Notes: generated by a model not told the origin, from the letters alone. Counted from the first letter of the stretch, positions 1,684 through 22,460 are shown. The stretch is DNA of 36,533 nt from an uncultured archaeon (GCA_964631415.1 CAZVZC010000018.1:1-36533); one strand, 5' to 3'. Made by a program: numbers and translations.

Positions 1684-1825
1684 GCCCAAGCTGAGGGTTG
1701 GCAAAGAGGGAGCGGGCTGCTTGGAATTCGAGGCGCTTGCCGGATAGTGGGAAGGCTTTTGTGCCGGGTGCGCATCTCTGTTCGGAGTCCCAATGCCGCG
1801 GCCGCCCAAGGAGGGTTTCTCTGTT

Positions 1826-3775
1826 ATGCATCGCGGAGCTGCCGTGGTTTCAATCCTGCTTGCATTATTGGCACTAGGATTTCCAGGACCGCTAGCAGCG
1901 GGGGCTAGCAACCTACCGTCCACATTGGATGCTTTCAATGCGGCCAGTGAAGCGATCGCATACCCCTCAAAGGTCGAGGACGAATTGGGCCCACTCATAG
2001 TGGGTGATTATTTCAACACAATGCCTGTAGGGTTCAACAGCACTCTCTGGGACCTGTCCACTTCCGGCAACCCCAGCTTGGCTTGGGAGGACGCAGAGCG
2101 ATTTGTGCTGTACACGTACATGTGGCAGTACTCAATCCTGAAGACCAAGGTCATGACGGGTCCCGAAGTGATTGCAGACTTCAACATCACATTCTCTGGC
2201 GGCCTCTGCTATTTTGGCATTGGCTGGTCTGACAGTTTGTGGGAGCCGGGCAGCGAGTGGATAACCAATCTGCGCCTGTCTGATAATGGCGTTTTCATTG
2301 ACTACTGGGACAACGAGCTATACTTGGTCAGTTACTGCAATGGGGAGAGAGCAGTGGCGCACATCCCCTCGGTTGACGTGACCCGGTGGAACCACTTTCG
2401 ACTTTGCTGGTCTGAGTCACTTGTCCGCTTGGAAGTAGATGACGTAATCTACTCCTTTGTGTCATGCAACATACCTCCGGGTCCGCTTCCCTTCGTTGTC
2501 ACTACGTCAGGCCATCACTATCTGTGCCAAAGAGACCAGCTGCGTCTTGAGGATGTGCAGTTGTTCTCCCGAGTAAGGGAGCCGATGGCTGACGACCCCC
2601 AGATAGTAATGCTCTGGCCAGGCAACAAATCTACTGTGTACACCACTGATTTAGTTGACCTTCAGGTTGACGGCTCTGATGGTGCCCTTGTATGCTCATG
2701 GGACGATGATGCGAACTCTAGCATCACCTCGCCGTGGGACATTCCTGTTCCCAGTGTTCCAGGGATCCATGATTTGACACTCTCTTCAAGGACTGAAGGG
2801 GGTCTTTGGCGAACGAGAAGCCTTCGGATTGAAGTGGAAGAGCTGATAACGGGCCTCGAGATTCCAGTCACTGAAGCTAGCTTCATAATAGACGGATTGG
2901 TCGAAGGCGCCGAGAAGGGTTGGACAAGGGAGTTCAAGGCACTGTTCCGAAACGAGGCACGTGAGGAGGTTACGATATCGCTTTACGTGGGTTCGACTTC
3001 GGAAGCACTGTATGTCGGACTTGGGTCGCATCTGCCGGATAGGTGGAACACACGGATCGCACTTCTTGTTGATGGTGAGGGCGACGGGTTCTGGAAGACA
3101 TTGTTCGTGAGTCCTCCTCGGGATTTTGCAGTGTGTGTGGGAGCACCTGCTGCTGATCCCCGCTTTGAGAAGGAATCACTGACTACTCCGTCGGGAGTGG
3201 TCTTCTCTAGGTCTCTTTTGCCGGGACTGACATATGACTCAGATGTGAAAGACGGGGTAGTGAGTGCTGAGTTTCTGATTCCTCTTGCGGCAATCGGCGC
3301 TAACTCTTCTAGCGCGTTGGGGCTTGGCATGAAGCTGTCTGAGGGCGGCCAAGACTGGTACTTCCCGTCCTGGTATTCATCAACAAACCCGCCTCATCTG
3401 CCACTTGTTCTCCTAGGTCCACCTGAGGCAAAAGTACCCGTTCTATTGTGGGCCGTGACCGCACTAGGAATAGCAGGTCTTTCGGTTCTGGGTGTCTACA
3501 CATGGATGCGGAGCCGCTCTTCGCCAAGTGGCCGCGGGGGTGTTCCACCTATCAATGAGAGGCAGGAGCGCGTTCTAGTCCTCCTTGAGTCGCATCCTAT
3601 CCTGTCAATCGAACGCTTGGGAGAACTGGCCGGACTTGACCTGCCGTCGACGAGGCACACATTGCAGGAGCTATACAAGCTCGGTTTGGGGAATGGGCAT
3701 ATCGAGGTCTCAGGTGATAAGGTGATTCGCCGACTGCTGCCAGCTGGAAAAACAGAAAAGGAGGACAGCCTCTGA
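1826..3775 (+). CDS. Single-pass membrane protein: signal peptide, ConA/LamG(GH16-like) domain, Ig-like domain, CBM9/DOMON-like domain, TM helix, cytoplasmic PCI-like winged helix
   Basis: The ORF is open from 1793, but ATG 1826 directly precedes the hydrophobic signal (AAVVSILLALLALGF). Motifs: WNHFRLCWSESLVRLEVDD..IPPGPL (LamG/GH16-like, no ExDxE), IIDG...LYVG...LLVDG...AEFLIPL (CBM9-like), TM LLWAVTALGIAGLSVLGVYTW, tail LSIERLGELAGL...LQELYKLG. Confidence 0.8.
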   Translation: MHRGAAVVSILLALLALGFPGPLAAGASNLPSTLDAFNAASEAIAYPSKVEDELGPLIVGDYFNTMPVGFNSTLWDLSTSGNPSLAWEDAERFVLYTYMWQYSILKTKVMTGPEVIADFNITFSGGLCYFGIGWSDSLWEPGSEWITNLRLSDNGVFIDYWDNELYLVSYCNGERAVAHIPSVDVTRWNHFRLCWSESLVRLEVDDVIYSFVSCNIPPGPLPFVVTTSGHHYLCQRDQLRLEDVQLFSRVREPMADDPQIVMLWPGNKSTVYTTDLVDLQVDGSDGALVCSWDDDANSSITSPWDIPVPSVPGIHDLTLSSRTEGGLWRTRSLRIEVEELITGLEIPVTEASFIIDGLVEGAEKGWTREFKALFRNEAREEVTISLYVGSTSEALYVGLGSHLPDRWNTRIALLVDGEGDGFWKTLFVSPPRDFAVCVGAPAADPRFEKESLTTPSGVVFSRSLLPGLTYDSDVKDGVVSAEFLIPLAAIGANSSSALGLGMKLSEGGQDWYFPSWYSSTNPPHLPLVLLGPPEAKVPVLLWAVTALGIAGLSVLGVYTWMRSRSSPSGRGGVPPINERQERVLVLLESHPILSIERLGELAGLDLPSTRHTLQELYKLGLGNGHIEVSGDKVIRRLLPAGKTEKEDSL

Positions 3776-3798
3776 CAGTCTTCTAACGAGGGGATACA

Positions 3799-5706
3799 AT
3801 GGGTAATCTGAAGATCACATTTGCGCTGGTGATTATGTTGTCACTTGGACAATGTGCGCCGTGCCTTCCTTCGGATGGCTCTGGCAATACAACTGATGAC
3901 TGGATCGGGTCCCTTGACGCAAGGTCCGATAAGACGCGGTGCGCCAGCACATTTGCCGATGAACCGCCCGTGCTCTACGACGAATTCAACTCGTCGTTCA
4001 CAGGCTATGACCAGTCGCTGTGGAATCTGGAAACATATGGGAATGGCAGTGTGAGCTGGGTTGGAGGGGAGCAGTTCAACATGTCAGCCGAGCGTCACTC
4101 GTACAGAGCCCTCTCCTCAAAGATGGTGTTCTCGGTTGGACATGTGGTCAACCTCAGGCTTCGAAGTCTTGAGAAGGAGGCAGTGGTCTTCATAGGCTGG
4201 ACAAACAAGACGGCAGAGGGTTGGAACTACAATTTCTGGGGCGATTCTGTCTACTTCCAGATAGCACTGTCCACAGGTCTGCTTGATGTTGTGAACGGCA
4301 GTGCTTCCCCCCAGAGAGTCTTGCTCGCCGGTTTGAACCCCTCCGAGTATCACGATTACAGAATCGTCTGGAACAACACAGCAGTTGTGGCGTACATAGA
4401 CGGTACAAGGTTGGGTGCAATTGCCACCCCGATACCTGATACCTCCCTGCACTTCAAGATCGCAATAACGGAATTCAGGAATATGACAACAGAGGGCTGG
4501 CTATGTTTAGACAGGATCAGCATTTCCCCTCACACATCCATGTCCACTGAGAACCCGCCCTTCATAGCTCTCAACAGTCCCGGGAATGGAACGACTAATC
4601 TGGGTGGGGATTCGATTGACGCAGTTGTAGTGGGATCGGACGGGTTTATGCAGTACCGCTGGGACGATGACCCGGCTGTAGAGGTTCCTGTTTCATTTGA
4701 CATGAAGCTCCCGCTTTCAGCAGGTACACATATGCTCAATCTGAGTTGTCGGGACGGCTATGGATTGGGCATTACTGCCTCAGCCCGCTTCGTCTTTCTG
4801 ACGCAGGGAGCCAAACCCAGACTATACGTACCGATGTGCAAGACTCCACCGGCGATTGATGGTCTCATACGCGAATGGAGCTCGGAAACCCGTTTCAGCC
4901 TGCCGATGACTAGGTACACAGGGGAGCAACTTGAGGTCAATGCATACATGACGTATGACCAGGAGTTTTTGTATCTGGGAATCGACTCACCTGTCGCATT
5001 AGGACATGACTCACGCGCCACGCTGATTATTGATGGCGTGTGTGATGGTCACTACCACGGATCAAACCGGACGCCAATGCTGTCCCTGTACTATCACAAG
5101 GGTTCACCAAAGGCATGGGAAGGCTACACTGAACTCCAGTTTCTCAACGAATCCGAAGCTGCAGGAGTCAGATCGTTCAGGATTTCGCCGTTTCCCAGCG
5201 GCGCAGTATCTGCATCCAATGAGGTGGGCTCTCACGTACAATATGAATTCAGATTGCCGCTGGACGAGCTGCTGGCTGGCCCAGGGTCCACTCTGGGAGT
5301 GGCCTTCATTCTTCTGCCTTCGGGAATGGGCGTGGACACCTGGTTCTTTCCTATGGTGAATCCATGGCAGAATGCTTCGAGGCTGGCACTGGCAGACCTC
5401 CTAATCCCGCCTGTTGACCCGTTGTTTCTGATAGCGGCCATCGTGGGTTGTGGTGCTGTTGCTGCCGTTGCGTATGTAGGATGGTTGCGATGGAAGCTCA
5501 GCAAGCTGCCCGCCATCCTTCAGACTGAGCAAGCAGAGCGGATTCGGGTGTTGGCTCAGTCGCACGACTCCATTACCATTGAGCGCCTATCCCAACTCGC
5601 TGGTGTGTCTCCAGAGGAAACGACTGCTGTCGTGCGAGCCTTAGTCGAGCATGGACGGCTGAAAGCAACTCTCGATGCAAGTGCAGGTGTCATAAGACGG
5701 AGGTAG
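3799..5706 (+). CDS. Paralog of the preceding gene: secreted lectin-like ectodomain, TM helix, cytoplasmic PCI-like winged helix
   Basis: Same domain order: YHDYRIVWNNTAVVAYIDG; PPAIDG...YMTYDQEFLYLGID...YEFRLPLDEL (CBM9/DOMON-like); TM FLIAAIVGCGAVAAVAYVGWL; tail ITIERLSQLAGV...LVEHGRLKATLD...GVI. About 13 NxS/T sequons, all N-terminal of the TM. Confidence 0.85.
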   Translation: MGNLKITFALVIMLSLGQCAPCLPSDGSGNTTDDWIGSLDARSDKTRCASTFADEPPVLYDEFNSSFTGYDQSLWNLETYGNGSVSWVGGEQFNMSAERHSYRALSSKMVFSVGHVVNLRLRSLEKEAVVFIGWTNKTAEGWNYNFWGDSVYFQIALSTGLLDVVNGSASPQRVLLAGLNPSEYHDYRIVWNNTAVVAYIDGTRLGAIATPIPDTSLHFKIAITEFRNMTTEGWLCLDRISISPHTSMSTENPPFIALNSPGNGTTNLGGDSIDAVVVGSDGFMQYRWDDDPAVEVPVSFDMKLPLSAGTHMLNLSCRDGYGLGITASARFVFLTQGAKPRLYVPMCKTPPAIDGLIREWSSETRFSLPMTRYTGEQLEVNAYMTYDQEFLYLGIDSPVALGHDSRATLIIDGVCDGHYHGSNRTPMLSLYYHKGSPKAWEGYTELQFLNESEAAGVRSFRISPFPSGAVSASNEVGSHVQYEFRLPLDELLAGPGSTLGVAFILLPSGMGVDTWFFPMVNPWQNASRLALADLLIPPVDPLFLIAAIVGCGAVAAVAYVGWLRWKLSKLPAILQTEQAERIRVLAQSHDSITIERLSQLAGVSPEETTAVVRALVEHGRLKATLDASAGVIRRR

Positions 5707-7231
5707 GCCTACCAGCGACATGGGTCGGCGAGAACCTACAGTGTGTGCACACAACTCTCTCGGGTTGGCGCACGAACTGGTCAAACAGCTCCGGAAGAGG
5801 CATCATTGGAACCACCCGAAGCGGCGGTCTTCCCGGCCTTCTTGCCTTCTTCGTCGCTGAGAGCTTTACCGGTTTCGGAGTGAAGTCTTCAGCAGAATTG
5901 ACAATCTGTGATAGATGATCTCTCCAAGTCCTTGCGCTTCCCATTCCTGCAGGATCCGTATTGCCACCCACAACCATATCCAAGTACCCTGAGAGCCCTC
6001 TTGGGGGTTCGAAGCATATGACGAGACCTGACAGCAGGCTAGCTCTGGCACAGTGATCCGACAATCGCTCATTTGCACATCCATGAATGGAGCGCTCAAG
6101 GCAGAACTCTGTGAAGATCCTCCTTGCTGTGTCATGGCCGGTCGATGGCGCAAGGTGAAGAGACCGACCCAGGTCTTCAAAGCCTGAGAACCGCCTATTT
6201 GAACCCAGACGCGTTTCCACTTGTTGCCTTATTGCGTCGCGCCAGGTGAACACGCGTGTTCGTGACTTCTCGAGGTCTTTCCAGTAAGCATCTGATATAA
6301 ACACCTTCAGAAAGGTCTCATCGAGTGTTCCGTGCCAGGAGGTAGTGACATCTGCAATATCGATTGGGATTGTCAATCGTTGCATACCCCTTGGCATACC
6401 GGCTTCTAGTTCCTCTGACAGGACTTCGTGGAAGTCAACGGTGAGATACAGTGGGTCCGGTGTGTCAAGTGCCGCGGTCGTGGATACCGTGATGAGTAGG
6501 CAGGGCGGACTCGACGTGTCTGTCAGCAGCTGCCATGAAACATCGATATCATCCATTTCTGGGCTTGTTCTGCCGAGTTCTGTCTTGGCGATGGCTCCGA
6601 GAATGAAATCAGCGATGTGCGACATATCGCTCCACGCGTCCAGCGACAGCCTGTCCCTGTTCTTCATTCTCACGGCATCAAGCACGATGAGTACCCTCTT
6701 GTCGAGCAATGACCCTGAGAGCCACGATGTCTTGGACCAAGAGGTCTGCCTGTCTAAAACAACAGCCGTTCTCAATGCACTCATCACTTCGGCCAACGCA
6801 TCTTCGTAGCTGCAGCCAATCGGAGAGAGATTGATGACAGTGGTATGTTCGAGCTCGGTCTGGGCCTGCTGGAATTGAACCTGACTGAGGGGTTTCCCCC
6901 GCAGGCAATCAGCCAGATTCAGGACAAGATCAACCCCACGTCTTAATCCTACGGCGTGAACCGAAACTGCCAGCATGGCGGATTCTGCTCTAAGAATCCG
7001 GAAGAGGGCTTCAGAGCCGGTGTCCGTGACCAACAGCGCCTCTTCTTGGTCGCTTGCGGGATTCTCTCCTGCAGTGGTCAGCGGCACTATAGTGAAGGTC
7101 TTCCTATCATACGAGAGCTCGTAGGCTTTCTCACCTGTATTCGCTGCCGCCTTACGTGGCGTAATCCTCAGGATGGGCTTCGAGTCTAGTAGCCCAATAA
7201 AGACCGTGAAGGGCAAGTCTGATGTGGACAT
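5690..7231 (-). CDS. Hypothetical protein, possibly a degenerate STAND/NB-ARC-like P-loop NTPase
   Basis: Long 513-aa ORF that fills the gap and overlaps the convergent gene by 17 nt. Walker-B-like LLDKRVLIVLDAV is present; there is no intact GxxxxGK[ST]. Confidence 0.6.
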   Translation of the reverse strand: MSTSDLPFTVFIGLLDSKPILRITPRKAAANTGEKAYELSYDRKTFTIVPLTTAGENPASDQEEALLVTDTGSEALFRILRAESAMLAVSVHAVGLRRGVDLVLNLADCLRGKPLSQVQFQQAQTELEHTTVINLSPIGCSYEDALAEVMSALRTAVVLDRQTSWSKTSWLSGSLLDKRVLIVLDAVRMKNRDRLSLDAWSDMSHIADFILGAIAKTELGRTSPEMDDIDVSWQLLTDTSSPPCLLITVSTTAALDTPDPLYLTVDFHEVLSEELEAGMPRGMQRLTIPIDIADVTTSWHGTLDETFLKVFISDAYWKDLEKSRTRVFTWRDAIRQQVETRLGSNRRFSGFEDLGRSLHLAPSTGHDTARRIFTEFCLERSIHGCANERLSDHCARASLLSGLVICFEPPRGLSGYLDMVVGGNTDPAGMGSARTWRDHLSQIVNSAEDFTPKPVKLSATKKARRPGRPPLRVVPMMPLPELFDQFVRQPERVVCTHCRFSPTHVAGRPTSVL

Positions 7232-7339
7232 AGGAATCCCTTCTTGCCCCGAGTGACGAGCTCAGCGCGAACCTATTGGTCTACTGCTTATCCCATATCT
7301 AAAGGCTTCCCCATGGGACACCCACAACACGCATCAGGC

Positions 7340-7361
7340 TGTCCGGTGGTTGTTCCGGACA
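7340..7361. promoter_or_regulatory. Palindromic operator candidate TGTCCGG-N8-CCGGACA in a divergent intergenic region
   Basis: Perfect 7-bp inverted repeat. A second copy with the same spacing lies at 8081-8100. Confidence 0.45.
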
Positions 7362-7568
7362 AGCTCCGGTTTTTGTCATTGGGCCCTCGGCCAACCGCGA
7401 AAAATGCTTATGACTAACTGAACGAACACATAGGGTTGTGCAAAGGAGTCCGCGACAAGTTTGATGCTGGCCAGTCAGGTCTTCTTCTGCACGGGGGTAG
7501 TGTGAACGACAGAGCCTGACTTCTCATTTGGGGAGAAGGATGAGCGCGTTCTCTCAGTCAGTGATCTT

Positions 7569-7949
7569 GTGAACCAGGCTCTGTCCCCTACCGAGATTGC
7601 CATTCTGTCAGCGGCGTCAGAACTAAGGAGTTCCAAGGGGCGGCCGCCAACAGCGTCTGAGATCAGGTCTGCGCTCTCAAGACGTCTGGGTCTGAAGAAA
7701 ACGCAGTTGTACGACTTACTGCGGAGGCTCACTCAGTTTGGCTTCATTACAGTCAAGACTCTACCACGACCTAGAAGGTATATCGTCAATCAGGTCACTC
7801 TGATGTCTGGGATCACAAACTGGATTGAAGCCCAGAAAAGGTCAGTTCTCGGGATGAATGAAGAGATTGACGTTCTTGGGCGGGCTCTGCAGAAACCGAA
7901 GACGAGGATACGTGACTGGTTTCCAGTGGAAGGTTCAGCCCGGGAGTAA
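7569..7949 (+). CDS. Winged-helix transcriptional regulator (TrmB/LexA-N-like) with C-terminal coiled helix
   Basis: GRPPTASEI...LGLKKTQLYDLLRRLTQFGFI...RPRRY is a typical wHTH with wing. GTG start. Confidence 0.75.
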   Translation: MNQALSPTEIAILSAASELRSSKGRPPTASEIRSALSRRLGLKKTQLYDLLRRLTQFGFITVKTLPRPRRYIVNQVTLMSGITNWIEAQKRSVLGMNEEIDVLGRALQKPKTRIRDWFPVEGSARE

Positions 7950-8080
7950 GAAGCGAACACATCGAAACGAGAAAGAACGCAGAACGAGCCGGTGGTAAGG
8001 AAGAAACCTCTATTCAAGAGTGCACACTGCTTCACTTGTCAACCACATGGACGAAGCGCTCTAGCTAAAAGGTGTAGGAT

Positions 8081-8100
8081 TGTCCGGTTCAAGAGCCGGA
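8081..8100. promoter_or_regulatory. Second copy of the TGTCCGG-N8-CCGGA palindrome, upstream of the 8159 ORF
   Basis: Sequence tgtccgg-ttcaagag-ccgga: same left arm and spacer length as 7340-7361. Confidence 0.4.
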
Positions 8101-8158
8101 ACTCAGTCTAAACGACGGCTAGATTCGAAAGAAAACAGCAAAAACCAGCTGAGCGTCA

Positions 8159-8461
8159 ATGGACCGTTCGATGCTTTCACCTTTGGAATTGCTTACTATC
8201 ATGGCCGCGGTTTCGCCGGTAGCCGCATGCCTATCGTTGCCGGGAATGAGGCGGAAACGACTTCCGTGGTTCTTGGAAACGAAAGAAGCTGAACGCGTCC
8301 TAGCAGTGGTTTCATCATATGCAATCATTACAATCGATCGGCTCTCTGAGCTCACGAGCCTAGCCGACTCGTCAACAGTCATGATCGTTGAGGCCCTGAT
8401 TGAACATGGACGACTCAAGGCGACATTCGATCGGGACGCAGGACTGATCCGTAGTGTGTAG
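8159..8461 (+). CDS. Small PCI-like winged-helix protein with a weak N-terminal hydrophobic anchor; minimal paralog or remnant of the 3799-5706 C-terminus
   Basis: AERVLAVVSSYAIITIDRLSEL...LIEHGRLKATFDRDAGLIR aligns without gaps to AERIRVLAQSHDSITIERLSQL...LVEHGRLKATLDASAGVIR. Confidence 0.65.
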   Translation: MDRSMLSPLELLTIMAAVSPVAACLSLPGMRRKRLPWFLETKEAERVLAVVSSYAIITIDRLSELTSLADSSTVMIVEALIEHGRLKATFDRDAGLIRSV

Positions 8462-8487: not shown

Positions 8488-9735
8488 TTAGCGAAAATCA
8501 AAGGCCACCTTAATTGCATTGGCCCTAGCCTTTTGTTCACTGCACTTGAAAGCGGCTTTGAAGTCTTCTATTCTGAACTTATGTGTGAGCAGACCTCTGT
8601 ATAGATCCGCCGTCTTCTCTAATGCTCCTAATGCAAGGAACATGGTGTCAATCCTACTCTCATCGATTGTTTCCACGCCATGCATCATTGACCCAGTAAT
8701 GGTAAGCTGCTTGTACAGCTGCAGAGCCCAGTCAGTTGCCTTCGTCTTTCCGAAGCCCATTCCGACGATGACAACCCTGCCATTGCTTCTCACGAGGTGC
8801 AGGGCATCGTCTATCGTCGAGTCAGTGCCCACCGCGTCGAAGACGACATCTGGACCAGAGTCACCATAGAGGATGCGTTTGCCGATCTTGGGTTTGAACA
8901 GCACGCCATCTGTCATCTCAGCCACTCTTTCATAGAGGCGGTCATGTGGTCCTTCGGAAATCACTTCATCTGAGCCCAGTTTCTTTGCGGCCTCGGCTTG
9001 GAAGTCATACCTCGCCATCGTAATGATCCTACACTTGGAACCGAGTGCGCGCAGAGCGGCCACGATCATGAGCCCAATGATTCCTCCTCCAATCACCAGG
9101 ACCTTGTCATTATTGCCTGGACGGTTTCTGGCGACCGCATGCAGACTGACGGCAAAGGGCTCCGACAGAACCGCTATCTCGTCAGGGAGCGATGAGGGCA
9201 CTCTCGTGAATTGCCTCGCGAATCCAACGAAGTACTCGCTGAAGCCTCCTCCACTGAAACCACCGAAGCCTCCCCTGCCACCATACCGATTCTCAAGGTC
9301 TGTTCCGTCGCCGCGCCCAACAAGGGCATAGCAGGTTTCATAGTTGCCGTTTCTGCAGCTTGGGCACGGGGCAAAGCCAAATGACTCACAGGCCGCAAGA
9401 GGAGAGTGCACAACTCTGTCGCCGACGCTGAAATCACCCGCTTGGTCCCCGACTTCCACTACCTCCCCCACAAGCTCGTGCCCCATTGGGAATGGGTTTT
9501 CTCTTCTTGCAAGGATACTCGCTGAATAGGGCAGATTCACGTTAATCTGATGAATGTCGGATGTGCAGATGCCTGCGATGCGTGTCTTTACTTTGATCTG
9601 TCTTGGGTGTTTGACCTCCGGCACAGGCCAATCCTCTCGATACTTAACCATGGAGTACTTGCCCGCAAGGCCTGCCTTTTTCAGAATGACCTTCCACACC
9701 TTCAGGTCGTACATTATACCCTTCGTGTCAAGCAC
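8488..9735 (-). CDS. Zinc-dependent medium-chain dehydrogenase/reductase (alcohol/polyol/threonine dehydrogenase-like)
   Basis: Catalytic Zn motifs GICTSDIH and MGHELVGEV; structural Zn C..CPSC..C; NAD-binding VIGGGIIG; C-terminal IKVAF. Confidence 0.92.
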   Translation of the reverse strand: MLDTKGIMYDLKVWKVILKKAGLAGKYSMVKYREDWPVPEVKHPRQIKVKTRIAGICTSDIHQINVNLPYSASILARRENPFPMGHELVGEVVEVGDQAGDFSVGDRVVHSPLAACESFGFAPCPSCRNGNYETCYALVGRGDGTDLENRYGGRGGFGGFSGGGFSEYFVGFARQFTRVPSSLPDEIAVLSEPFAVSLHAVARNRPGNNDKVLVIGGGIIGLMIVAALRALGSKCRIITMARYDFQAEAAKKLGSDEVISEGPHDRLYERVAEMTDGVLFKPKIGKRILYGDSGPDVVFDAVGTDSTIDDALHLVRSNGRVVIVGMGFGKTKATDWALQLYKQLTITGSMMHGVETIDESRIDTMFLALGALEKTADLYRGLLTHKFRIEDFKAAFKCSEQKARANAIKVAFDFR

Positions 9736-9846: not shown

Positions 9847-10024
9847 TCGGATTGTTCTCTGTGGAAAACCCGAGGCCGCTGCCCGCTCGCGCCTAAGGAG
9901 AAGACAATGCACGCTAGGACCTCGTTTTCCGAAACCTATGCGAGAGTCATCATCCCGGAACGGCCCATTGTTGCTTGCACTTGCACCAACCGCCGGCTCG
10001 TCTTTTCATGGAGGTGAATCTAGG

Positions 10025-13000
10025 TTGTCACTGAATGCCACACTGCATCAGATACTCGTGATTGTCATGTTGTCAATGCTCATGCTCAGTTCGGCGACTG
10101 TAGTCACGGCTGTAGCATCTGAAATTCCCGCTCTGCCAAAATCTCGAGTCAATGACGGCCTCGAAACACAAGTTACTGTGTACTTCGACTCGTCGGCCAA
10201 TGACATCATGTCGACTGTAGCGATGGTCAGTGGTTGCATCCAGCGGTGTGGGATTCCTGTTGTCCAATCTGGTGTGCAGTCGATCCTCTCTCTGGACTAT
10301 TCACTGGAAAGAAGCGACCCGGGGATTGCAGTGTACATCTTCGAGAGCAGCCTGAGTGGTATTATGATACAGAGTGAAGTTGTTTCATGGACGGAAGTTG
10401 CTGTTCTCACGACAACGCACAATCTGATGCACCATGTATTCGGCATTGGCAATGCAAAGTGCCTCCTTCAGTATGTTCCTGATTCAGAGAAACTGCACAT
10501 TGACCAGACAGACATGATAGACCTGAGAATCACGACCGTGTACTCCCTATGGACGACCGCAGAGATACTGATTCAGAGCGATAGCACTATAGACAGCACC
10601 AGGGGCGAACAGCTCAGAACACTGGTTCTCAAGGACTTCTGTAAGAACATAAACGAGATCATCTCCAAGGCTCTCTTTCCGAAGACCTACACTGGCGAAC
10701 GAGTCCCTCAGCCAATCACAAACCCAAGACTCACACAATCATGGGTTGTGGAGGAACCCCAGCTGGATGCTGCCGGGGTCGAGTTGAAGCCAATCATGAA
10801 GATGTCCACGCAAGACAACGCTAGTGAGTACGTACCCCTGAGAGAGGTCTGCCCTGAGAGCGGCGTCGGAGGTCCTATCGGTTGGCTGGTTGACGTTGTT
10901 CTGGCACTCCTTACGGCTAATGGATTTGAGGAGCTTCAATTGAACGTCGAGGCTGCTGAGGAGATCAACGATTACGTCGACGGACTTGTGAAGGACGCCA
11001 AAGACGACGTTGTTGACTGGTTCAGCGACGAGGGATTCAACATAACAGGCTATGACTTCGCCTCTGCCATGCCATCGCTGCTCCAGCGGCAGATGTTTGA
11101 GCTGTGGGCCCTGGGCGACGACTTGATAGCTGACGCATTTACGGAAGCGGACGACTGGCTGACATCATGGGTCGAGCAGGTAGTTGAGACTCCAGTGCAG
11201 ACGGACCTCATCGGACTCACACCGGTCTTCCTTCTTCGCGTGGGAACGCCAATCAACCTTGGTTCAGACTTCGCCAGCTTCGGAGCAGTGATACGGATCA
11301 AGTTGCTGCCCACCTTCGAAGCTGACGAAACAGCCTTTGAAACCTTCATGAACAACGCCATTTTCGGAAGTCTGAATCTAACGAGTATGACGAACGTGAC
11401 AGAGGCCTTCACGGAGGTCAGGAAGTTCATAGATGTCATACCTGTCCTTGACATGGATCTGGCAGTCTGTGCGTTCCTGCCCAGCAAGAGCGCGTGGCTT
11501 CAGACCATCATGAGCCCCTTGGAGTTCAACTTCTTCGGAGCCGCTAGCATGCAGCTGGCGTTCCCGCCAATCGATGCATCGAACACCGAAAGGTCATTCA
11601 TTGAGGTCCGGTCCTGGTCACTCAAGTTCGATGTCGATGCTTCATTCACTATCACAATCTCAGCACTCCTTTCGGTACCCGGAGTGAGCGGAGTTGTAGA
11701 TACGATTATGGACACACTCTCTGAACTCCTCAGTGCCACTATCACTTTGACAGTTTCGGTCACATTTGAGATAAGCAAGCAGTATGTCGGCCAAGGGAGC
11801 CCCGCACGATCGAGTGTTGTTATTGACATTGTTGTTGGTGCCAGCATCCAAGTCCGAATACTCGTGGTCATATTCAGAGGAACATTCCAAGTAGGACTCA
11901 GGTTCCAACAGACTTCGGGAGGGTCCAGCAACTCCTCGACTCTGCTAGCTGATCAGGAGTCGCCTTTCACAACTAGTTCTCTTGCAGCAACCACACTGTC
12001 GGTTTCTCTAACGCTATACTGCTCGCTCTATTTGGGCGTTGACGTAGTCGGCGTAGGAACTGGTGCAGAGCTCGGTCCTTGGACAGATACCTATTCGCTT
12101 TCAACGTCTTGGGGTAGCAGTGACTACCTGACGAGCTCTGCGGACTTGACTGACACGGATCAGGATGGTCTTCCTGATGCCTTTGAGAGCCGAATGAACA
12201 CTGTGATGGGCACGACCTATCTGAGCACCAGCTCATCTGACACAGACTCAGATGGACTCAATGACAAGCTGGAACTCGAGCTCAATACTGCACCGAACGT
12301 CGCCGACACAGATGTAGACGGACTTCGTGATGGTCTAGAAGTGAAGACGTACTTGACAAACCCGCTGCTCAACGACACTGACAGGGACAACATCACGGAC
12401 GGTCAGGAAGTACTGGTGTACAAGACGAACCCGCTCGTGGTGGACACTGATGCAGATGGCCTAAGCGACTACTACGAAATCAACCGGGAATACGATGTTA
12501 CAAATACGAAAGGCACCTACGGTGCTGTCAACTCTGTCAAGATTGGCAACACGTACTATGACGACCGAACAGACCCTGTGAACTCTGACACGGACAATGA
12601 CGGCTTGCTGGACGGTGAGGAGGCCGAGAACGGGGTTGAGTATGCAAATGATACGGTAATCGCTGCTTGCTACTATGTCAAGAACAAGTACACAAGTCCC
12701 TTAGACGCTGACACCGACGATGATTCCGTATTCTGGGAGTGGCAGGATATTCCTCAGCAATTCGAGCCTGGCACATCGTACCTGAGAAACATGATAGACG
12801 GTGTCGAGGTGCTGGGTCAGTATATCACATTCATCGATAGCGAAGGGTATCCTGACGTGCAGTTCGTGAAGACGAACCCTGTCAACCCGGATACAGACAA
12901 TGACACTGGGGGCACCATCCTCTTCAACTCAGATGGTTACGAACTCACTTTGAGCCCACCAACTGACCCCACAAACGGCGACACTGACCATGATGGTCTG

Positions 13001-14722
13001 CTGGATGGCCGAGAAAAGATTGGTCCGTATGGGACCGGAACCGATCCAAACAGAGCTGACACGGACAATGACATGCTGCCAGACTATGAGGAGGTCACGC
13101 TGGCGACCAATGCAAGGGACCCTGACACTGATTCCGACGGTGTGATGGACGGCGAGGAGTACTACAAGTACGGGACCAGTCCCTTCCTCAACGACACTGA
13201 CATGGATGGCCTCACTGACTCGGAGGAGCTGTTCGAGTTCTATTCGAATCCACTTGTTCGGGACTCGGACGCAGATGGCTTGGATGACGGTGAGGAGGTC
13301 TTGTCCTATCTTACTGACCCCGTCAATGCGGACTCAGACTACGATGTGCTACTCGACGGCTATGAGGTACTTGTGTCTATGACAGACCCCATGCTGTTTG
13401 ACACAGACGTCGACGGGCTCGGGGACGGTGATGAACTGCTGATATATCATACAAACCCGCTTGATTGGGACACCGATGACGATTCCATCACGTTGACAAA
13501 TGAGTTTGGCAGAATCAGTTTCGCTTGGGGTGACGGAGCCGAGGTGGCATTCGGCACAAACCCCACATCTTCAGATTCCGACAACGATGGTCTGACTGAT
13601 GGAGAGGAGCTCTATCTGGGTCTGGGTTCTGCTGTCTTGGATCCCGTGCCGCTCAACCCTTTGTCAAACGACACCGACGGTGACGGTCTTTCCGATGGTG
13701 AAGAGATGATCATCGAGAATGTGTCGCTGAATACCTACCCATACTGGGGCTTAGTGGTAAGCCTCCGCTATGGCTCATGTCCTGCGAAGTTCGACAGTGA
13801 CGGTGACGGACTCAATGACACTGCTGAGGTGACCTATCTGTGTGATCCCACAAAGCCCGACACTGACGGAGACACAATGAGTGACGCCGTCGAAGTATAT
13901 GTGACCCATACAAACCCCACAAACAACGACACGGATTATGACGACATTCCAGACAACATGGAGTCAACAAACACGACCGAGTTTGCATTGGCTGCTGAGA
14001 TGTCTGGATGGGACTATGTGCCAAGTCAGTGGCCCATGTATCCGACATCTGCAACGGACAGTGACACAGATGACGACCTGCTGCCCGATGGCATTGAGCT
14101 GATTTACCACACTGGTCAGCTCAACCCAGATTCAAATGGAAATGGGGTGCTGGATGGAATGGAGTTCGATGCCGATGGTGACGGTCTGAAAGATGGAGAA
14201 GAGTTCTACATTTACAGAACGAACATGGGACCGCTTCCGATCGAGAACGGTACATGGATAGGAGAACCTGGCGGGTTCAATAATCCGGACAGTGATGGAG
14301 ATGGTCTCTCAGACGGCGTTGAAGTGCACACCTATGGCACTGACCCGACAGCGGCAGATTCAGACGAGGACGGTCTATCAGACGGCGAAGAGGCATCGCT
14401 TGGACTGAATCCACTTGTGCCGATTGTTCAAAGCGGTCCGACCTGGTATCTCATTGCAGTTGGGGCTGTCATTGGACTGGCCGCCGGCATTGGTGGTGAA
14501 ACGCTTATCTTGCTCATCAGGCAACGCGGCCTGAGATTCTGGAGATCGGGGAAGGCTTCAGGAAAGACTCCAGACCAGGAAACTAAGACCCCTGCCGCTG
14601 CCAAGACTGAGGTTGCGGCCGAGTCATCCCGGGAAGAGCCTAAGGAGCAAGAACCTGCCGCAGGTGAGAAGAGGACAAGGAAACGCACGACAAGAACAAC
14701 AAAGGAGAGTGGTAAGGCATGA
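10025..14722 (+). CDS. Large membrane-anchored surface protein/adhesin with ~26 thrombospondin type-3-like (DxDxDG) Ca-binding repeats
   Basis: The ORF is open from 9938, but TTG 10025 has a perfect GGAGGTGA SD (10010-10017) and is followed by a signal peptide. It contains repeats D[TS]DxDGLxDGxE...TNP, a C-terminal TM (WYLIAVGAVIGLAAGIGGETLILLI) and a K/E/T-rich cytoplasmic tail. Confidence 0.88.
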   Translation: MSLNATLHQILVIVMLSMLMLSSATVVTAVASEIPALPKSRVNDGLETQVTVYFDSSANDIMSTVAMVSGCIQRCGIPVVQSGVQSILSLDYSLERSDPGIAVYIFESSLSGIMIQSEVVSWTEVAVLTTTHNLMHHVFGIGNAKCLLQYVPDSEKLHIDQTDMIDLRITTVYSLWTTAEILIQSDSTIDSTRGEQLRTLVLKDFCKNINEIISKALFPKTYTGERVPQPITNPRLTQSWVVEEPQLDAAGVELKPIMKMSTQDNASEYVPLREVCPESGVGGPIGWLVDVVLALLTANGFEELQLNVEAAEEINDYVDGLVKDAKDDVVDWFSDEGFNITGYDFASAMPSLLQRQMFELWALGDDLIADAFTEADDWLTSWVEQVVETPVQTDLIGLTPVFLLRVGTPINLGSDFASFGAVIRIKLLPTFEADETAFETFMNNAIFGSLNLTSMTNVTEAFTEVRKFIDVIPVLDMDLAVCAFLPSKSAWLQTIMSPLEFNFFGAASMQLAFPPIDASNTERSFIEVRSWSLKFDVDASFTITISALLSVPGVSGVVDTIMDTLSELLSATITLTVSVTFEISKQYVGQGSPARSSVVIDIVVGASIQVRILVVIFRGTFQVGLRFQQTSGGSSNSSTLLADQESPFTTSSLAATTLSVSLTLYCSLYLGVDVVGVGTGAELGPWTDTYSLSTSWGSSDYLTSSADLTDTDQDGLPDAFESRMNTVMGTTYLSTSSSDTDSDGLNDKLELELNTAPNVADTDVDGLRDGLEVKTYLTNPLLNDTDRDNITDGQEVLVYKTNPLVVDTDADGLSDYYEINREYDVTNTKGTYGAVNSVKIGNTYYDDRTDPVNSDTDNDGLLDGEEAENGVEYANDTVIAACYYVKNKYTSPLDADTDDDSVFWEWQDIPQQFEPGTSYLRNMIDGVEVLGQYITFIDSEGYPDVQFVKTNPVNPDTDNDTGGTILFNSDGYELTLSPPTDPTNGDTDHDGLLDGREKIGPYGTGTDPNRADTDNDMLPDYEEVTLATNARDPDTDSDGVMDGEEYYKYGTSPFLNDTDMDGLTDSEELFEFYSNPLVRDSDADGLDDGEEVLSYLTDPVNADSDYDVLLDGYEVLVSMTDPMLFDTDVDGLGDGDELLIYHTNPLDWDTDDDSITLTNEFGRISFAWGDGAEVAFGTNPTSSDSDNDGLTDGEELYLGLGSAVLDPVPLNPLSNDTDGDGLSDGEEMIIENVSLNTYPYWGLVVSLRYGSCPAKFDSDGDGLNDTAEVTYLCDPTKPDTDGDTMSDAVEVYVTHTNPTNNDTDYDDIPDNMESTNTTEFALAAEMSGWDYVPSQWPMYPTSATDSDTDDDLLPDGIELIYHTGQLNPDSNGNGVLDGMEFDADGDGLKDGEEFYIYRTNMGPLPIENGTWIGEPGGFNNPDSDGDGLSDGVEVHTYGTDPTAADSDEDGLSDGEEASLGLNPLVPIVQSGPTWYLIAVGAVIGLAAGIGGETLILLIRQRGLRFWRSGKASGKTPDQETKTPAAAKTEVAAESSREEPKEQEPAAGEKRTRKRTTRTTKESGKA
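12152..14410 (+). repeat. Intragenic TSP3-like Ca-binding repeat array (protein-level repeats)
   Basis: About 26 DxDxD(G) units, mostly ~23-24 aa apart, with several longer inserts. The DNA copies are diverged. Confidence 0.9.
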
Positions 14723-17700
14723 GTGATGCGAGACGGACCCTGATAGCGGCGTCCATCATCTTGATGATGGCTTTGATTGTCGTTCCAACATCGCCTCCGG
14801 GATTCCTACCCACATTACTGCCTGATGAGAATGTTTCTCCAGACCAACAGAGGGACTCTCCGAATCTCATGCTGGACGGTGAGTTCAACCTCACGAATGA
14901 CTACCAGCTCATCTGGGAGCCCAACAACATACAGGGTTCGTCACATGCGGTAGCCACCTCTCCGAACAAGAACCTCATTGCAGTTGCTGGCGGATACCTC
15001 TCTGACAGCGAGGTGCATGTCTACAGATGGGATAACGCGTCAAAAGACTACATCCATGTGTGGGACGCTGGCAATGACTTAATCCGGAGTGATGTGCAGG
15101 ACGTCGCCATTGCGGACGCTGATAACAATGGTTTGCTTGAGGTCTACGCGGCCAGTGCAGACGGCAGGATATATGTATTCGAGGCGAGGGGTTTCGAGGA
15201 AGGCTTTGTCTACCTAGACAACGCGAACAACGTCTTTGAGCTTGTCTGGGACAGCCAACTTGCCATACGTCGCCAAGTCTGGTCTGTCAAGGTCGAGGAC
15301 GTCGACCATGACAATCAGGGCGAGATTGTAGCTGGTTGTTGGGACAACCGCGTCCATGTGTTCGACTACGTCGATCATTCTAACTACCCATACTGCCCAA
15401 GTCATTCGATGAGTTTCATACATGTGTGGGACAGCGGAAACCAGATTGGAGGACGGGTATACGATGTCGCTGTCGGCGACACTGATTGCGATGGTCGGAC
15501 CGACATTCTTGCGGCAAGTTATGACTGCCGGGTCTACGTGTTTGAAGAGATCCCATGCTTCAAGCACACATACCAGAAGAAGTGGGACAGTGGCGACGCG
15601 ATGTCCAAACCTGTCATTTCTATGGCGGTCAGCAACAATCTGGATGAAGACCAATACGGCGAGATTGTCGCATCAGCATACGGCGACGGAGTCTATGTCT
15701 TCGAGTACAATTCCACCAGTGCCAGTTACGATGTATTGAGAATCAATCGACAACTGGAGAGCTGGGAGGAGGGCACTGTATACACAGCAGGTGTGTGGAC
15801 AGGCTACGAGGCAGATCCATACGTGGACAAGAAGGTCTATGGATGGGAAGAACAAGGAGTCTACGAACTCGACCCACGACCGTACCCCTGGAAGACTATT
15901 GCGATTGGCGGCAATTCCTGCTTAGGCGGCCCCCGCGATTTGAACTGCACCACTTTTCAGCTGCCTGAGGTCTACAGCTATCTCTCAACATGGGGTGCGA
16001 ATGGCTCCCTCGCAGGTCAGTTCTATCTTCCAGATGACATCGCTTTCGATTCTTACTCGAATGCGTACGTACTTGACACTTCGAACAGCCGTGTCCAGAA
16101 GCTGACTGGGGCTGGTCAGTTTGTCGACGCTTGGGGAGAGCTTGGAAGCGGCGTAGGGCAGTTCAAGTGGCCCCAAGGCATATGTGTTGACGCGCAGTCC
16201 TATGTCTACGTTTCTGATACGTGGAATCACAGAATCGTGAAGCTGAACCCGGATGGAGTATGGCTGGCTTCTTGGGGAAACGAAGGAACCGGCCTTGGTC
16301 AGTTTGAATATCCAATGGGTATCGCGGCGGACTCCTCTGGGCGTCTGTATGTCTGTGACTCTCTCAACATGCGAATACAGGTGCTGGACACGGAAAGCGG
16401 TGCCGTAGTCAATTCCTGGGGCGCCAACGGTTCGGGTCCAGGTCAGTTCTACTATCCTTTGGCAATTGCCGTTAGCGAACTGGGTATCTATGTGGCCGAC
16501 ACCTACAACAACAGAGTCCAGATGTTCACCTCAGAGGGCGACTTCGTACTGCAGTGGGGCAAGCTAGGCGAAGACGCAGGTGACTTTGGCTATCCTGACG
16601 GGATTGCATGTGACCTCGAAGGCAACGTGTATGTCAGTGATACAGGCTACGACCACATTGAGAAGTTCACTGCTTCAGGCCGCTTGATAACAAACTTTGG
16701 CTCAACTGGTACCGGTTTCGGCGAGCTTACGGGTCCACGTGGACTGGAAGTTGCTCCCAATGGGGCAGTCTATGTTGTTGACTCCTCGAACAGCCGTGTA
16801 GAAGGCTTCGCCATTCAGAAGTACTCTCTGGACAAGACAATCGGTAGTTTGGGGACAAAGGTCGGTCAGTTCTACTTCCCGAGTGACGCAGCTATCGACG
16901 ATCAAGGGTACATCTTCGTATCTGATTCCAGCAACAACCGAATCCAGAAACTGGCCGGTGATGGCACCTGCATCACGTTGTGGGGAGAGCTGGGTGCAGG
17001 GGAAGGCCAGTTTAACTTCACATCGGGGATTGCAGTGGGCAATGGGAATAGCGTCTATGTCGTCGATCGAAACAACAATCGCATCCAGCGTTTCGACAGC
17101 GAGGGCAACTTCCTGAGGGCATGGGGTGTCAAGGGTTCGGGTGATGGGGAATTGCTCAGTCCCACTGACATAGATATTGGCCCAGATGGTACGCTGTACG
17201 TTACCGACACGGGCAACGACCGCATATCGCTGTTCACTTCAGAGGGTGATTTCATCAGGACCTTCGGTTCACACGGTGACCAGCCCAACCAAGTGGACAC
17301 CCCGTACGGTATTGCCGTTAATGAGCAAGGCACCATATTCGTCACTGAGAGGGGCAACAACAGAATCCATCTCTTCGACAGCGAGGGAACGTCCGTTGCC
17401 TACTGGACAGGCGAGTTCTCCGAGCCCTTGAGGATTGAACATGATGGATACGGGAATCTGTATTTGACCGTAATCAAGGGCACTGCCATTGCATTGATGA
17501 AGTTCACGATGGAGGGCATGCCACTTGGAAGCCTGCCGACCACAATCTCGAACTATCGGACATCTGTAGACTTGCAGATGCCTCTAGGGATTACGTTCGA
17601 CCGTGCAGGGGATCTCTTGATTGTGGATACGTGGGCAGGTGTTGTTGTAAGAACGTACACGGATTTCGTGCTCAATTCTGTGGCAGAGGCAATCGTAGAC

Positions 17701-20667: not shown

Positions 20668-22460
20668 AGAATACAGCGACACGTTCCCTAGCATTAGCAG
20701 TCTTGATTGGGGTCCTTTCCCTTGCTATGCTTTCTCCAATAGCACCCATGGAAGTTGCGCAGACTAATGCTTCTGTATTGAGTCCTCGCCTAACTCGTAT
20801 GATAGACAAGTGGCCCCTGAATCTTGACGAGTCTACTTCAAACATGGCAAGCGTTCTGGCATCAATTGATGAGCCTCCATCCATATCCTCTTTCGTGCAT
20901 CCTAACTGGGAGTATAGGGACTGTTTCAACTTCACCAATAGCGAATACACCTTCGGGCCCGAAGTGATGACAGAGGAGGAAGTTGAGGAGAACCTTAGGA
21001 ACTACATCTTCCAGCTTCTATATGGAGACATAGAAGCAGCCTGTCGTGTCAGCATTCTGGACATCATGTTGTTTCGGGTTTTTGATTCTCTGATAGTGGA
21101 TTGGATAGGCATAGACTTCATGGGCTTCTGCAATGGCATGTCGATGGCCTCGAGAGACTACTTCATGGACTCGTCGAAAATCCCTCTCGGCAAACACTAC
21201 GCTTACGATCTGCCCTCACCTGACCCTAACTCTACGATTGCCGAGCAGACTCAAGGCGACGTCACAGAGTCCGCAATCAAGGAGTACGTGCTTTGGAAGG
21301 GGTCTGCAGCGTTCTTCAATCCGAATCACCTGCTGAACTGGGTCAAACTGTACCTAGGTCTCTCTCTACAGTCAGGCGGGACGAACAATGCACTGGAGTT
21401 CCAGAAGCTAACGCAACTCATGATGAAAGGCTCACCACAGTATCAGCCTGTAGTGATACTCATGACGGCCGCCGTCTGGGAGAACTCGGACCCCGGGAAG
21501 AGCCACTTCGTAGTCGCCTATGACTATGAAACCAACTCGAACGGAACGAAGACAATATACATCTATGACAACCGTATTCACTTCAACTCGAGCTGTTTCT
21601 GGCACGAGGACTGGATCTTATTGGGTAGTGACGGGACCTTCTCAGGTACTCACCTCTCTCCTGAGAAGGCGGATGTATGGAGGCGGATGTGTGTGTACCC
21701 TGCGTCATGCGAGTACAATAGCATACTTACGACATTGGCGGCTTTGCTACCGAATGCTCTTCAGTTCCTCGCTTTCTGCCCCGTAGACCTGATAATCACA
21801 GACCCACTCGGAAGGAAGGTTGGCCCCGGACCCGACGGCCAACTAAGGGCTGAGTTCCCTGCCATCTATGTGGAGGATGGAGACCAGGATATTGTGTTCA
21901 TGCCCTATGCTCCTGGTCTGCCGTACACTCTGAATGTGACCGGAACAGGTCAAGGTAACTACACGCTGGAGATCAACAGAGTCGTGGACGGGCAGATTGT
22001 AACTCAGTCGTTGAATGGACAGACTGAGGAAGGCAAATCGGATGTCTTCTCTGTTGCCGCAGCCGGGGGAAGTCTGAACTTCGCAAGACAAGGGGTAGTC
22101 CTGAGCGTGCCAACGATTACGTCTGCATCATCTGTCAACCTTCAGTGGAGCCGCTATGATGGTCTTGACTTCAACAGGTACGAAGTTCTACAGTCGACAT
22201 CTCTAGGAGAACTAGGACAGGTCGTGGCGACAGTTGGCAACCAGGACACTACATCGTGCAGTGTTTCGAATCTCCAACCCGGGGCAACGTACTTCTTCAC
22301 AGTAAGAGTTGACAGTTCAGACTATGGGGCTCTTGGCTCGAACCAAGTAGGTGCGGCAATGCCAGAGTCAGCATTTCCTTGGACGTGGGTTGCAGTCGGA
22401 ACAGTGGGTGCTGCAGCAGTCATAGTCGTGCTTGCTCTGAGCTGTAAGAGCAGGAAGTAG
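20664..22460 (+). CDS. Membrane-anchored papain-like (Cys-His-Asp) peptidase/transglutaminase-like protein with Ig-like and fibronectin type III domains
   Basis: Signal peptide; GFCNGMS (C156); KSHFVVAY (H281); IYIYDN (D302); CPVDLIITDPLGRKVG Ig-like module; FN3 (VNLQWS...YEV...VSNLQPGATYFFTVRV); C-terminal TM followed by KSRK. ATGA overlap with the upstream gene. Confidence 0.75.
   Translation: MKNTATRSLALAVLIGVLSLAMLSPIAPMEVAQTNASVLSPRLTRMIDKWPLNLDESTSNMASVLASIDEPPSISSFVHPNWEYRDCFNFTNSEYTFGPEVMTEEEVEENLRNYIFQLLYGDIEAACRVSILDIMLFRVFDSLIVDWIGIDFMGFCNGMSMASRDYFMDSSKIPLGKHYAYDLPSPDPNSTIAEQTQGDVTESAIKEYVLWKGSAAFFNPNHLLNWVKLYLGLSLQSGGTNNALEFQKLTQLMMKGSPQYQPVVILMTAAVWENSDPGKSHFVVAYDYETNSNGTKTIYIYDNRIHFNSSCFWHEDWILLGSDGTFSGTHLSPEKADVWRRMCVYPASCEYNSILTTLAALLPNALQFLAFCPVDLIITDPLGRKVGPGPDGQLRAEFPAIYVEDGDQDIVFMPYAPGLPYTLNVTGTGQGNYTLEINRVVDGQIVTQSLNGQTEEGKSDVFSVAAAGGSLNFARQGVVLSVPTITSASSVNLQWSRYDGLDFNRYEVLQSTSLGELGQVVATVGNQDTTSCSVSNLQPGATYFFTVRVDSSDYGALGSNQVGAAMPESAFPWTWVAVGTVGAAAVIVVLALSCKSRK

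Follow-up and report, generated by a model that had tools for sequence, protein, structure and literature searches.

How does an archaeal membrane protein that exposes lectin-like domains to the outside make use of a small winged helix (WH) on the inner face of the membrane, as a docking site for other proteins or as a reader of DNA? This question is raised by nucleotides 1826–8461 of a contig from an uncultured archaeon (GCA_964631415.1 CAZVZC010000018.1:1-36533; the whole stretch of 36,533 nucleotides is referred to here as the window). The contig is of the Thorarchaeota type of Asgard archaea, and those homologs of its proteins whose source is named are labelled Thor-, Sif- or Promethearchaeota; the assembly that holds it comprises 2.16 Mb and is 85% complete. 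We found that two genes of this region encode receptor-like paralogs of a lineage-restricted family which, save for an automatic ‘PCI domain-containing’ label, is previously undescribed. Their tail is, as its sequence indicates with good support, the WH half of a PCI domain, and their genes are linked to one encoding a Cys-rich protein, P0004. Our best explanation, which we put forward tentatively, is that an accessory cassette of Thorarchaeota encodes a kinase-less transmembrane receptor system, in which the WH tail would dock the adjacently encoded P0004 and a soluble regulator, D, would serve as the output. Five genes, named A, B, C, D and the mini gene, are located between those encoding fumarase and alcohol dehydrogenase (ADH):

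232–1683, fumarase gene, left flank of the five-gene stretch
1793–3775, plus strand, gene A, receptor paralog P0001 of 660 amino acids (aa), open frame
3799–5706, plus strand, gene B, receptor paralog P0002 (635 aa), open frame, 32 homologs
5690–7231, minus strand, gene C, P0004 (513 aa), cytoplasmic Cys-rich orphan
7569–7949, plus strand, gene D, P0039 (126 aa), soluble TrmB-like winged helix-turn-helix (wHTH) protein, weakly of the TrmB/IclR type
8159–8461, plus strand, mini paralog P0003 (100 aa), with a hydrophobic segment, RRKR and a B-type PCI-like WH (nucleotides 8270–8452)
8488–9735, minus strand, ADH gene, right flank of the five-gene stretch

The preliminary description of this span listed A, B and the mini gene, all of which are indeed open frames, but missed C and D, two further genes of the system. 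For A, a start at position 1826 (Met12) gives a better signal peptide and is the likelier one. Genes B and C converge, and their 3′ ends overlap by 17 nucleotides.

The affinity of the tails was assessed with both single-sequence and profile searches. Against the PCI family of Pfam (PF01399, cut-off 22 bits), the whole B protein scored 26.8 bits and its isolated tail 32.1 bits (E = 1.3e-7), while the mini protein stayed under the cut-off (19.8 bits) and the tail of A gave no match, its best family being MarR (E = 0.011). DNA-binding Pfam families matched the tails at E-values of 0.01–0.17. When the 25 tails were aligned (A2) and the resulting profile was compared with all PDB sequences, Rpn5 ranked first (6.8e-5), followed by a plant PCI protein and eIF3c and, further down, by the DDRGK1-UFL1 fusion (7.6e-4), eIF3e and CSN4; the first MarR protein appeared at 0.09. 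The same profile, run with hmmsearch against 1.84 billion cluster representatives, retrieved only 46 proteins at E ≤ 1e-3. They comprise the Thor receptors, whole or as fragments, a group of PCI-type proteins and a small number of archaeal proteins that have either multiple WHs or a WH together with a zinc ribbon. Among the matches scanned with Pfam, two are confirmed as eukaryotic-type PCI proteins (P0066, with PSMD12/CSN4_N, PCI and RPN5_C, and P0076, with PCI), and about eight further matches carry the tail signature when inspected by eye. The tail profile thus recovers eukaryotic Rpn5-type proteins reciprocally. Tails and PCI subunits (Rpn5/PSMD12, CSN4, eIF3c) share the pattern Y/H-x-x-I-S/T-I-x-R-L-S ... 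E-x-E ... L-I ... G-x-L-x-A-x-hydrophobic-D.

Structure comparison adds to this picture. A Foldseek search of the PDB with the AF2 model of the tail alone (pLDDT 91.8) returned PCI subunits as all of its top 47 or so matches, with PSMD12 as the best (31% identity, TM-score 0.79, root-mean-square deviation (rmsd) 1.5, 58 columns). We set aside a geometry-only fold search as support for PCI, as it places SelB, Z-alpha, CSN3, CSN4, IclR, BirA, DDRGK1 and MarR within about 1.5 Z units and does not single out PCI. Since geometry ranks DNA-binding WHs equally, the PCI assignment is a sequence-level statement on a domain of 55–60 residues. In sum, the preliminary view of the tails as PCI WHs was borne out, and in the comparison of PF01399 with DNA-binding wHTH families, which it had proposed, both the profile and the Foldseek searches were led by PCI, with only the A tail closest to MarR. 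Of the motif that it had given for the tails, the A tail matches the first half only.

In the 25 tails, the net charge of helix 3 averages −2.0 (range −4 to +2) and that of the whole WH −2.3; the sole basic part is the last strand, S3 (mean +1.6). With such an acidic putative recognition helix, direct binding of DNA by the tail is unlikely. The earlier alternative suggestion that the tails act as DNA-binding one-component regulators is therefore disfavoured, given both this charge and the preference of the profiles for PCI over DNA-binding families.

Only one half of the PCI domain is present. In the AF2 model of B (24 family sequences, mean pLDDT 81), the transmembrane helix ends at residue 568 and helix H1 of the WH starts at 577, everything upstream of the transmembrane helix is beta-rich ectodomain, and the PF01399 match covers model positions 30–80 of 84; the helical-repeat (TPR-like) half is absent in B. 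Absent too is the C-terminal PCI bundle helix, since B ends one residue past S3. The subunits of the proteasome lid, the COP9 signalosome (CSN) and eIF3 possess both of these elements. The tails differ from PCI complexes also in that a single WH follows right behind the transmembrane helix of an extracytoplasmic receptor, with no linked MPN partner found, and, in contrast to eukaryotic PCI subunits, the receptor family is limited to part of one Thorarchaeota family. Another likeness is offered by DDRGK1/UFBP1 with UFL1 (PDB 8b9x, 8c0d), where a PCI-like WH on a protein with a single transmembrane segment serves protein docking at the cytoplasmic face of the membrane (geometry score against the tail, Z 8.4). 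Yet, DDRGK1 is anchored N-terminally and is devoid of an ectodomain, whereas the receptors described here combine an ectodomain with a C-terminal tail, and the Pfam DDRGK family (PF09756) did not match the tails at E ≤ 10.

The receptors themselves are built as follows:

B, N-terminus, signal-peptide helix (AF2 model)
B, 3961–4536, plus strand, ectodomain 1, GH16/L-type-lectin-like jelly roll, residues 55–246
B, 4561–4803, plus strand, ectodomain 2, Ig-like beta-sandwich, residues 255–335 (AF2 secondary structure)
B, 4816–5406, plus strand, ectodomain 3, CBM9-like beta-sandwich, residues 340–536
B, 5422–5478, plus strand, transmembrane core, residues 542–560, followed by the basic WLRWKLSK
B, 5527–5700, plus strand, cytoplasmic PCI-type WH, residues 577–634, H1-S1-H2-H3-S2-S3
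A, signal peptide, jelly roll, Ig-like domain, CBM9-like domain, transmembrane core at residues 550–568, cytoplasmic WH tail (nucleotides 3551–3733)

The tandem paralogs A and B align over their full length (25% identity, E = 1e-44). An ortholog of A is encoded in locus L011 of CP070658 (35% identity, E = 4e-118), while the 32 homologs of B, the named ones of which come from Thor-type metagenome-assembled genomes, are 43–90% identical to it; their automatic names include, once each, ‘PCI domain-containing protein’ and, from JGI, ‘predicted transcriptional regulator’. In VIA-align, residues 57–245 of B superimpose on GH16 lichenases (Z 19.9, rmsd 2.4, 169 residues aligned to 3d6e), and the same list includes the L-type lectin ERGIC-53 and the pseudo-glucanase Rv0315. 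Residues 340–536 superimpose on CBM9 (1i82, Z 18.8; 7nwn, Z 18.7), with which the Foldseek list concurs; the Pfam CBM9 family gave no match. Ectodomains 1 and 3 thus share their folds with GH16 hydrolases, Rv0315, ERGIC-53 and CBM9 (Z 17–20), in agreement with the ConA/LamG-like and CBM9-like domains proposed before. However, the catalytic ExDx(x)E motif of GH16 hydrolases was found by regular expression in none of the 24 family members, and the stretch of the alignment that was judged by eye to be the expected catalytic strand has the sequence D/N-S-V-Y-I/F-E/Q; ectodomain 1 thus has the appearance of a binding module and not of an enzyme. Taken by itself, the Ig-like segment matches the Ig repeats that giant surface proteins of other Asgard genomes contain. 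The modelled folds suggest that the ectodomains may bind carbohydrates or another surface ligand.

It is well supported that A and B are type-I membrane glycoproteins with the N-terminus outside, one transmembrane segment and the tail inside. Besides the signal peptide, this topology, which had also been anticipated, is indicated by the Lys and Arg content of the ten residues beside the transmembrane core (24 members), with a mean of 2.9 on the C-terminal side and 0.4 on the N-terminal side, and by the frequency of N-x-S/T sequons, with 2.1 per 100 ectodomain residues across the family compared with 0.6 for the tail; all 13 sequons of B lie in the ectodomain. The mean pairwise identity is 62, 58 and 53% for the three ectodomain domains and 39% for the tail.

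We surveyed 301 Asgard genomes for related receptors. Full-length genes of the A/B type occur in about 10 of the 76 genomes of the window's own Thorarchaeota family (genera g1, g9, g12 and g16), and none was found outside this family among the genomes searched, where the other matches come from Ig domains in giant surface proteins. Homologs of P0004 were detected in 10 of 80 genomes of the family, each of which also has a receptor; conversely, at least one genome with a receptor, the 87%-complete G200, in which the receptor gene lies at the end of a contig, yielded no P0004 match. Across 81 genomes of the family, every P0004 gene detected adjoins a receptor gene in convergent orientation. Comparison of 12 fetched loci by BLAST at the level of open reading frames (ORFs) revealed two types of organization. 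The two-receptor layout A> B> <C D> is present in the window and in L011, L012, L015, L016 and L017, and a one-receptor layout, C> <A-like, with no D nearby, in L013, L014, L018 and L019. In all ten complete loci, C and a receptor gene meet at their 3′ ends, which abut or overlap, and this convergent linkage is kept at 30–47% protein identity. D is confined to two-receptor loci. C is hence the invariant partner in these loci, B and D being optional, and the 513-aa neighbour that was previously regarded as a separate curiosity belongs to the system. The four loci with a single receptor imply that A/B hetero-pairing is not obligatory. With respect to synteny across Asgard genomes, the cassette is patchy and restricted to a few Thorarchaeota genera. 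The neighbours in the one-receptor loci are genes for PQQ-like propellers.

Members of the C family share seven invariant Cys residues (140, 377, 385, 394, 406, 495 and 498 in alignment A3), an invariant G-R-P-P within a basic stretch, which as a motif could be read as resembling an AT-hook, a C-terminal CxxC and a terminal V-C-x-x-C-R/K-F. A long form of the protein is extended at the N-terminus by about 100 aa relative to a short form. No match to P0004 was obtained in Pfam and NCBIfam with the single sequence, in Pfam with 20 members, or in the PDB with its profile (best E 0.39), and the Atlas holds no model of it (best feature score 0.80).

Two palindromic sequences are associated with the cassette:

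7340–7361, perfect palindrome TGTCCGG-N8-CCGGACA, in the divergent intergenic region of C and D, upstream of a B recognition element (BRE)/TATA-like box
8081–8102, second, imperfect copy, upstream of the mini gene, at the right edge of the 6.4-kb indel described below

The exact palindrome has two occurrences in the window; when two mismatches are allowed, it is not enriched there (5 found, 3.0 expected in shuffles). A similar palindrome occupies the same intergenic position in L011 and degenerate ones do so in L012 and L015, and the BRE/TATA-like box is found at the same position in all three of these orthologous loci examined. The shared order consists of a CCGG-N8-CCGG-type palindrome, a CCGGAATTTTGGCA-like box and an A-rich/CTTATSA BRE/TATA-like element before the wHTH gene (window, 7340–7420; L011:13520-13610; L012:13250-13340; L015:9140-9225). 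Such a layout would fit autoregulation by P0039, the product of D, one helix of which is rich in K/R/Q/T (KKTQLYDLLRRL). D is a better candidate than the tails for any DNA-binding output.

The mini gene carries the same tail, as previously proposed: P0003 is 42% identical to residues 539–633 of B, i.e., its transmembrane segment and tail (E = 1e-20), and aligns also with the tail of A (E = 8e-6). In the congener G155 (L021, G155:C104), the mini gene and the ADH gene come almost immediately after that for fumarase, and the equivalent of window positions ~1720–8100, i.e., genes A–D, is missing as a single 6.4-kb block. The mini ortholog of G155 is 82% identical, with a dN/dS of 0.22, which implies that this gene is maintained and is not debris. 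As A–D are present or absent as one block, the cassette is accessory and gained or lost as a unit. GCCGGA is found at both edges of the indel in the window (~1740 and ~8095), its right copy being inside the second palindrome; no tRNA gene and no obvious integrase gene were seen at the cassette edges.

In three genomes the cassette adjoins genes for giant surface proteins of the FG-GAP/Ig/NHL type, whose orientations differ. These proteins may represent a function that the cassette regulates or cooperates with. Their genes are found at the following positions:

Window, 9938–22460, giant surface protein genes
L011:14261-21896, giant surface protein genes
L012:13908-21902, giant surface protein genes

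Domains similar to the tail are distributed far more widely than the receptors. The tail profile detected them in 61 of the 301 Asgard genomes, from many families and mostly in ORFs of ~130–290 aa, which indicates that the module is older and broader than the receptor family; presumably, the latter captured a pre-existing WH. In the archaeon's own genome, the only other PF01399-like matches are two ~180-aa paralogs in which 2–3 transmembrane segments are combined with a PCI-type WH and, at the C-terminus, a CxxC...CxxC zinc ribbon, and a further membrane protein shows a weak match to the Pfam E3_UFM1_ligase family:

Contig C15 (L002:1303-1989), minus strand, PCI-type WH paralog, 22.0 bits to PF01399
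Contig C4 (L008:1174-1848), plus strand, PCI-type WH paralog, 15.0 bits to PF01399
Contig C12 (L023:1111-3075), plus strand, 654-aa transmembrane protein, 17.7 bits to E3_UFM1_ligase

By eye, the C12 protein consists of an N-terminal transmembrane anchor followed by what appear to be about eight tandem WH repeats. A metagenomic protein of 479 aa, P0065, contains four tail-like WHs and matches PCI (44.8 bits) and E3_UFM1_ligase (36.8 bits); no homolog of this UFL1-like protein was found in the archaeon's own genome. In a literature search for PCI domains in Asgard archaea, Thorarchaeota, archaea and transmembrane settings, a single relevant paper was found (Makarova et al., 2024; PMC10936438). 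It reports C-terminal PCI-like wH domains on membrane-associated Ser/Thr kinases from euryarchaeal loci of the endosomal sorting complex required for transport (ESCRT), as well as HTH/PCI domains in Asgard ESCRT-linked proteins, and proposes that PCI-like wH domains oligomerise or dock to one another. Those kinases and the receptors described here are alike in being archaeal membrane proteins with a small PCI-like wH. In contrast to the published proteins, the receptors have no kinase and no ESCRT neighbourhood, and are distinguished by type-I topology, a lectin-like ectodomain and a neighbour of the P0004 family.

How might these components work together? One or two type-I glycoproteins would expose a non-catalytic jelly roll, an Ig-like spacer and a CBM9-like module to the outside, joined by a single transmembrane helix to one cytoplasmic PCI-type WH. 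With its acidic helix, this WH would be a protein-docking module and not a DNA reader, a role for which the archaeal membrane proteins with PCI-like wH docking (PMC10936438) provide a precedent. Its most likely client would be the Cys-rich cytoplasmic P0004, encoded tail-to-tail with the receptor, and in the two-receptor loci the soluble wHTH protein D and its palindromic operator would probably give the transcriptional output. A contact between the tail and P0004, like any signalling through it, is what we infer. A more far-reaching version of this scheme, which we regard as rather unlikely, would have a ligand outside the cell change the hold of the tail on P0004 and on tail-only proteins at the membrane, and would thereby make it a new kinase-independent pathway of Asgard archaea and a prokaryotic antecedent of the membrane-anchored PCI/DDRGK1-type scaffolds of eukaryotes. 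Several observations weigh against the proposed receptor system. The profiles of P0004 and of the tail are dissimilar (hhalign probability 0.4%), P0004 has no recognisable domain, and the receptor and P0004 genes, being convergent, are not co-transcribed. The mini gene is under purifying selection where receptors and P0004 are missing, so that the tail must have one or more clients outside the cassette. In addition, carbohydrate binding is a prediction from the fold, and the geometry-only search ranks SelB, Z-alpha, IclR and BirA level with CSN subunits (Z 8.9–9.8).

Four other explanations were considered. Direct DNA binding would make the tails membrane-tethered one-component transcription factors similar to ToxR and CadC, with an inverted topology. 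ToxR, CadC, TcpP and ArnR of Sulfolobus have a sensor outside, a WH inside, one or more transmembrane segments in between and no kinase, a plan which the receptors share. The canonical wHTH fold, the equal geometric ranking of many DNA-binding WHs, the basic S3 and C-terminus, the JGI label of one homolog and the palindromes of the cassette are all in line with such a role. Yet, ArnR and proteins of the ToxR/CadC/TcpP type possess an N-terminal wHTH of the OmpR type or another basic one, whereas the tails are C-terminal and PCI-type and their helix 3 is acidic in nearly all cases. Moreover, sequence profiles prefer PCI over MarR/IclR/OmpR by at least three orders of magnitude, the linker between membrane and WH is short (~10–17 residues), and a soluble wHTH protein with a basic recognition helix, D, is encoded right beside the palindromes. 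We thus consider DNA reading by the tails very improbable. Still less credible is that the cassette is a mobile island, in which a recombinase- or transposase-like P0004 would carry the receptors as cargo and the linkage would merely reflect mobility. The clean 6.4-kb presence/absence between congeners with GCCGGA at both edges, the patchy distribution, the basic GRPP motif and CxxC of P0004 and a weak leaning of the Atlas feature search towards zf-IS66 (0.80, under any useful threshold) could be taken in its favour. However, six bases of microhomology are weak evidence, terminal inverted repeats were not seen, each receptor locus has a single copy of P0004, which occurs neither by itself nor together with different cargo, and gene order and convergent overlap persist at 30–47% identity.

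As the preliminary description had proposed, the A, B and mini tails might instead pair edge-to-edge through their beta-sheets in the manner of PCI subunits and form a membrane-tethered oligomeric platform, so that clustering itself would be the signal. This scenario, to which we assign a low probability, is compatible with the docking of P0004 and does not exclude it. It draws on the PCI-type sequence, on a sheet of three strands whose S1 and S2 edges are free, on the adjacency and co-conservation of A and B in six loci and on the purifying selection acting on the tail-only mini paralog. On the other hand, four loci manage with a single receptor and need no hetero-pairing, PCI horseshoes are stabilised by a helical-repeat half and by C-terminal helices, neither of which the tails possess, and the sole JAB/MPN gene found in the genome lies unlinked on another contig, C40. 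A serious rival, which nevertheless seems unlikely to us, is that A and B are surface adhesins, polysaccharide binders or envelope proteins without any signalling role, whose WH anchors them to an internal scaffold in a DDRGK1-like manner; the membrane-bound tandem-WH protein of C12 and ESCRT-type wH proteins would be candidates for such a scaffold. The higher conservation of the ectodomain than of the tail, its richness in N-x-S/T sequons and the proximity of giant FG-GAP/Ig surface protein genes to the cassette (window, L011 and L012) are consistent with adhesion. Anchoring is in line with the other membrane-tethered PCI-type WH proteins of the genome, including the apparent tandem-WH protein, and with DDRGK1-UFL1 being among the best solved relatives of the tail. 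Nonetheless, an adhesive or structural role leaves unexplained the strict linkage to P0004 and the presence of a wHTH gene with its operator. The Pfam DDRGK family fails to match the tails even at E 10, and searches of the 85%-complete genome, with uninformative controls, recovered neither UFC1 nor Ufm1.

The docking of P0004 by a PCI-type tail, tentative as it is, touches on a broader question. PCI WHs hold together three hallmark eukaryotic complexes, the proteasome lid, the COP9 signalosome and eIF3, and Asgard archaea are the archaeal group closest to eukaryotes; to our knowledge, the prokaryotic roots of these WHs are poorly mapped. Here, the WH half of the PCI domain occurs alone in Asgard archaea, at the inner face of the membrane and behind lectin-like ectodomains. 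The significance of this finding is limited by the confinement of the receptors to few Thorarchaeota genera, by the lack of the helical PCI half and by the fact that their function is predicted only. The linked orphan partner P0004 nonetheless provides a concrete and testable binding hypothesis. Taken together with the work of Makarova et al. (2024; PMC10936438), our results suggest a wide archaeal use of PCI/UFL1-type WHs as juxtamembrane docking modules.

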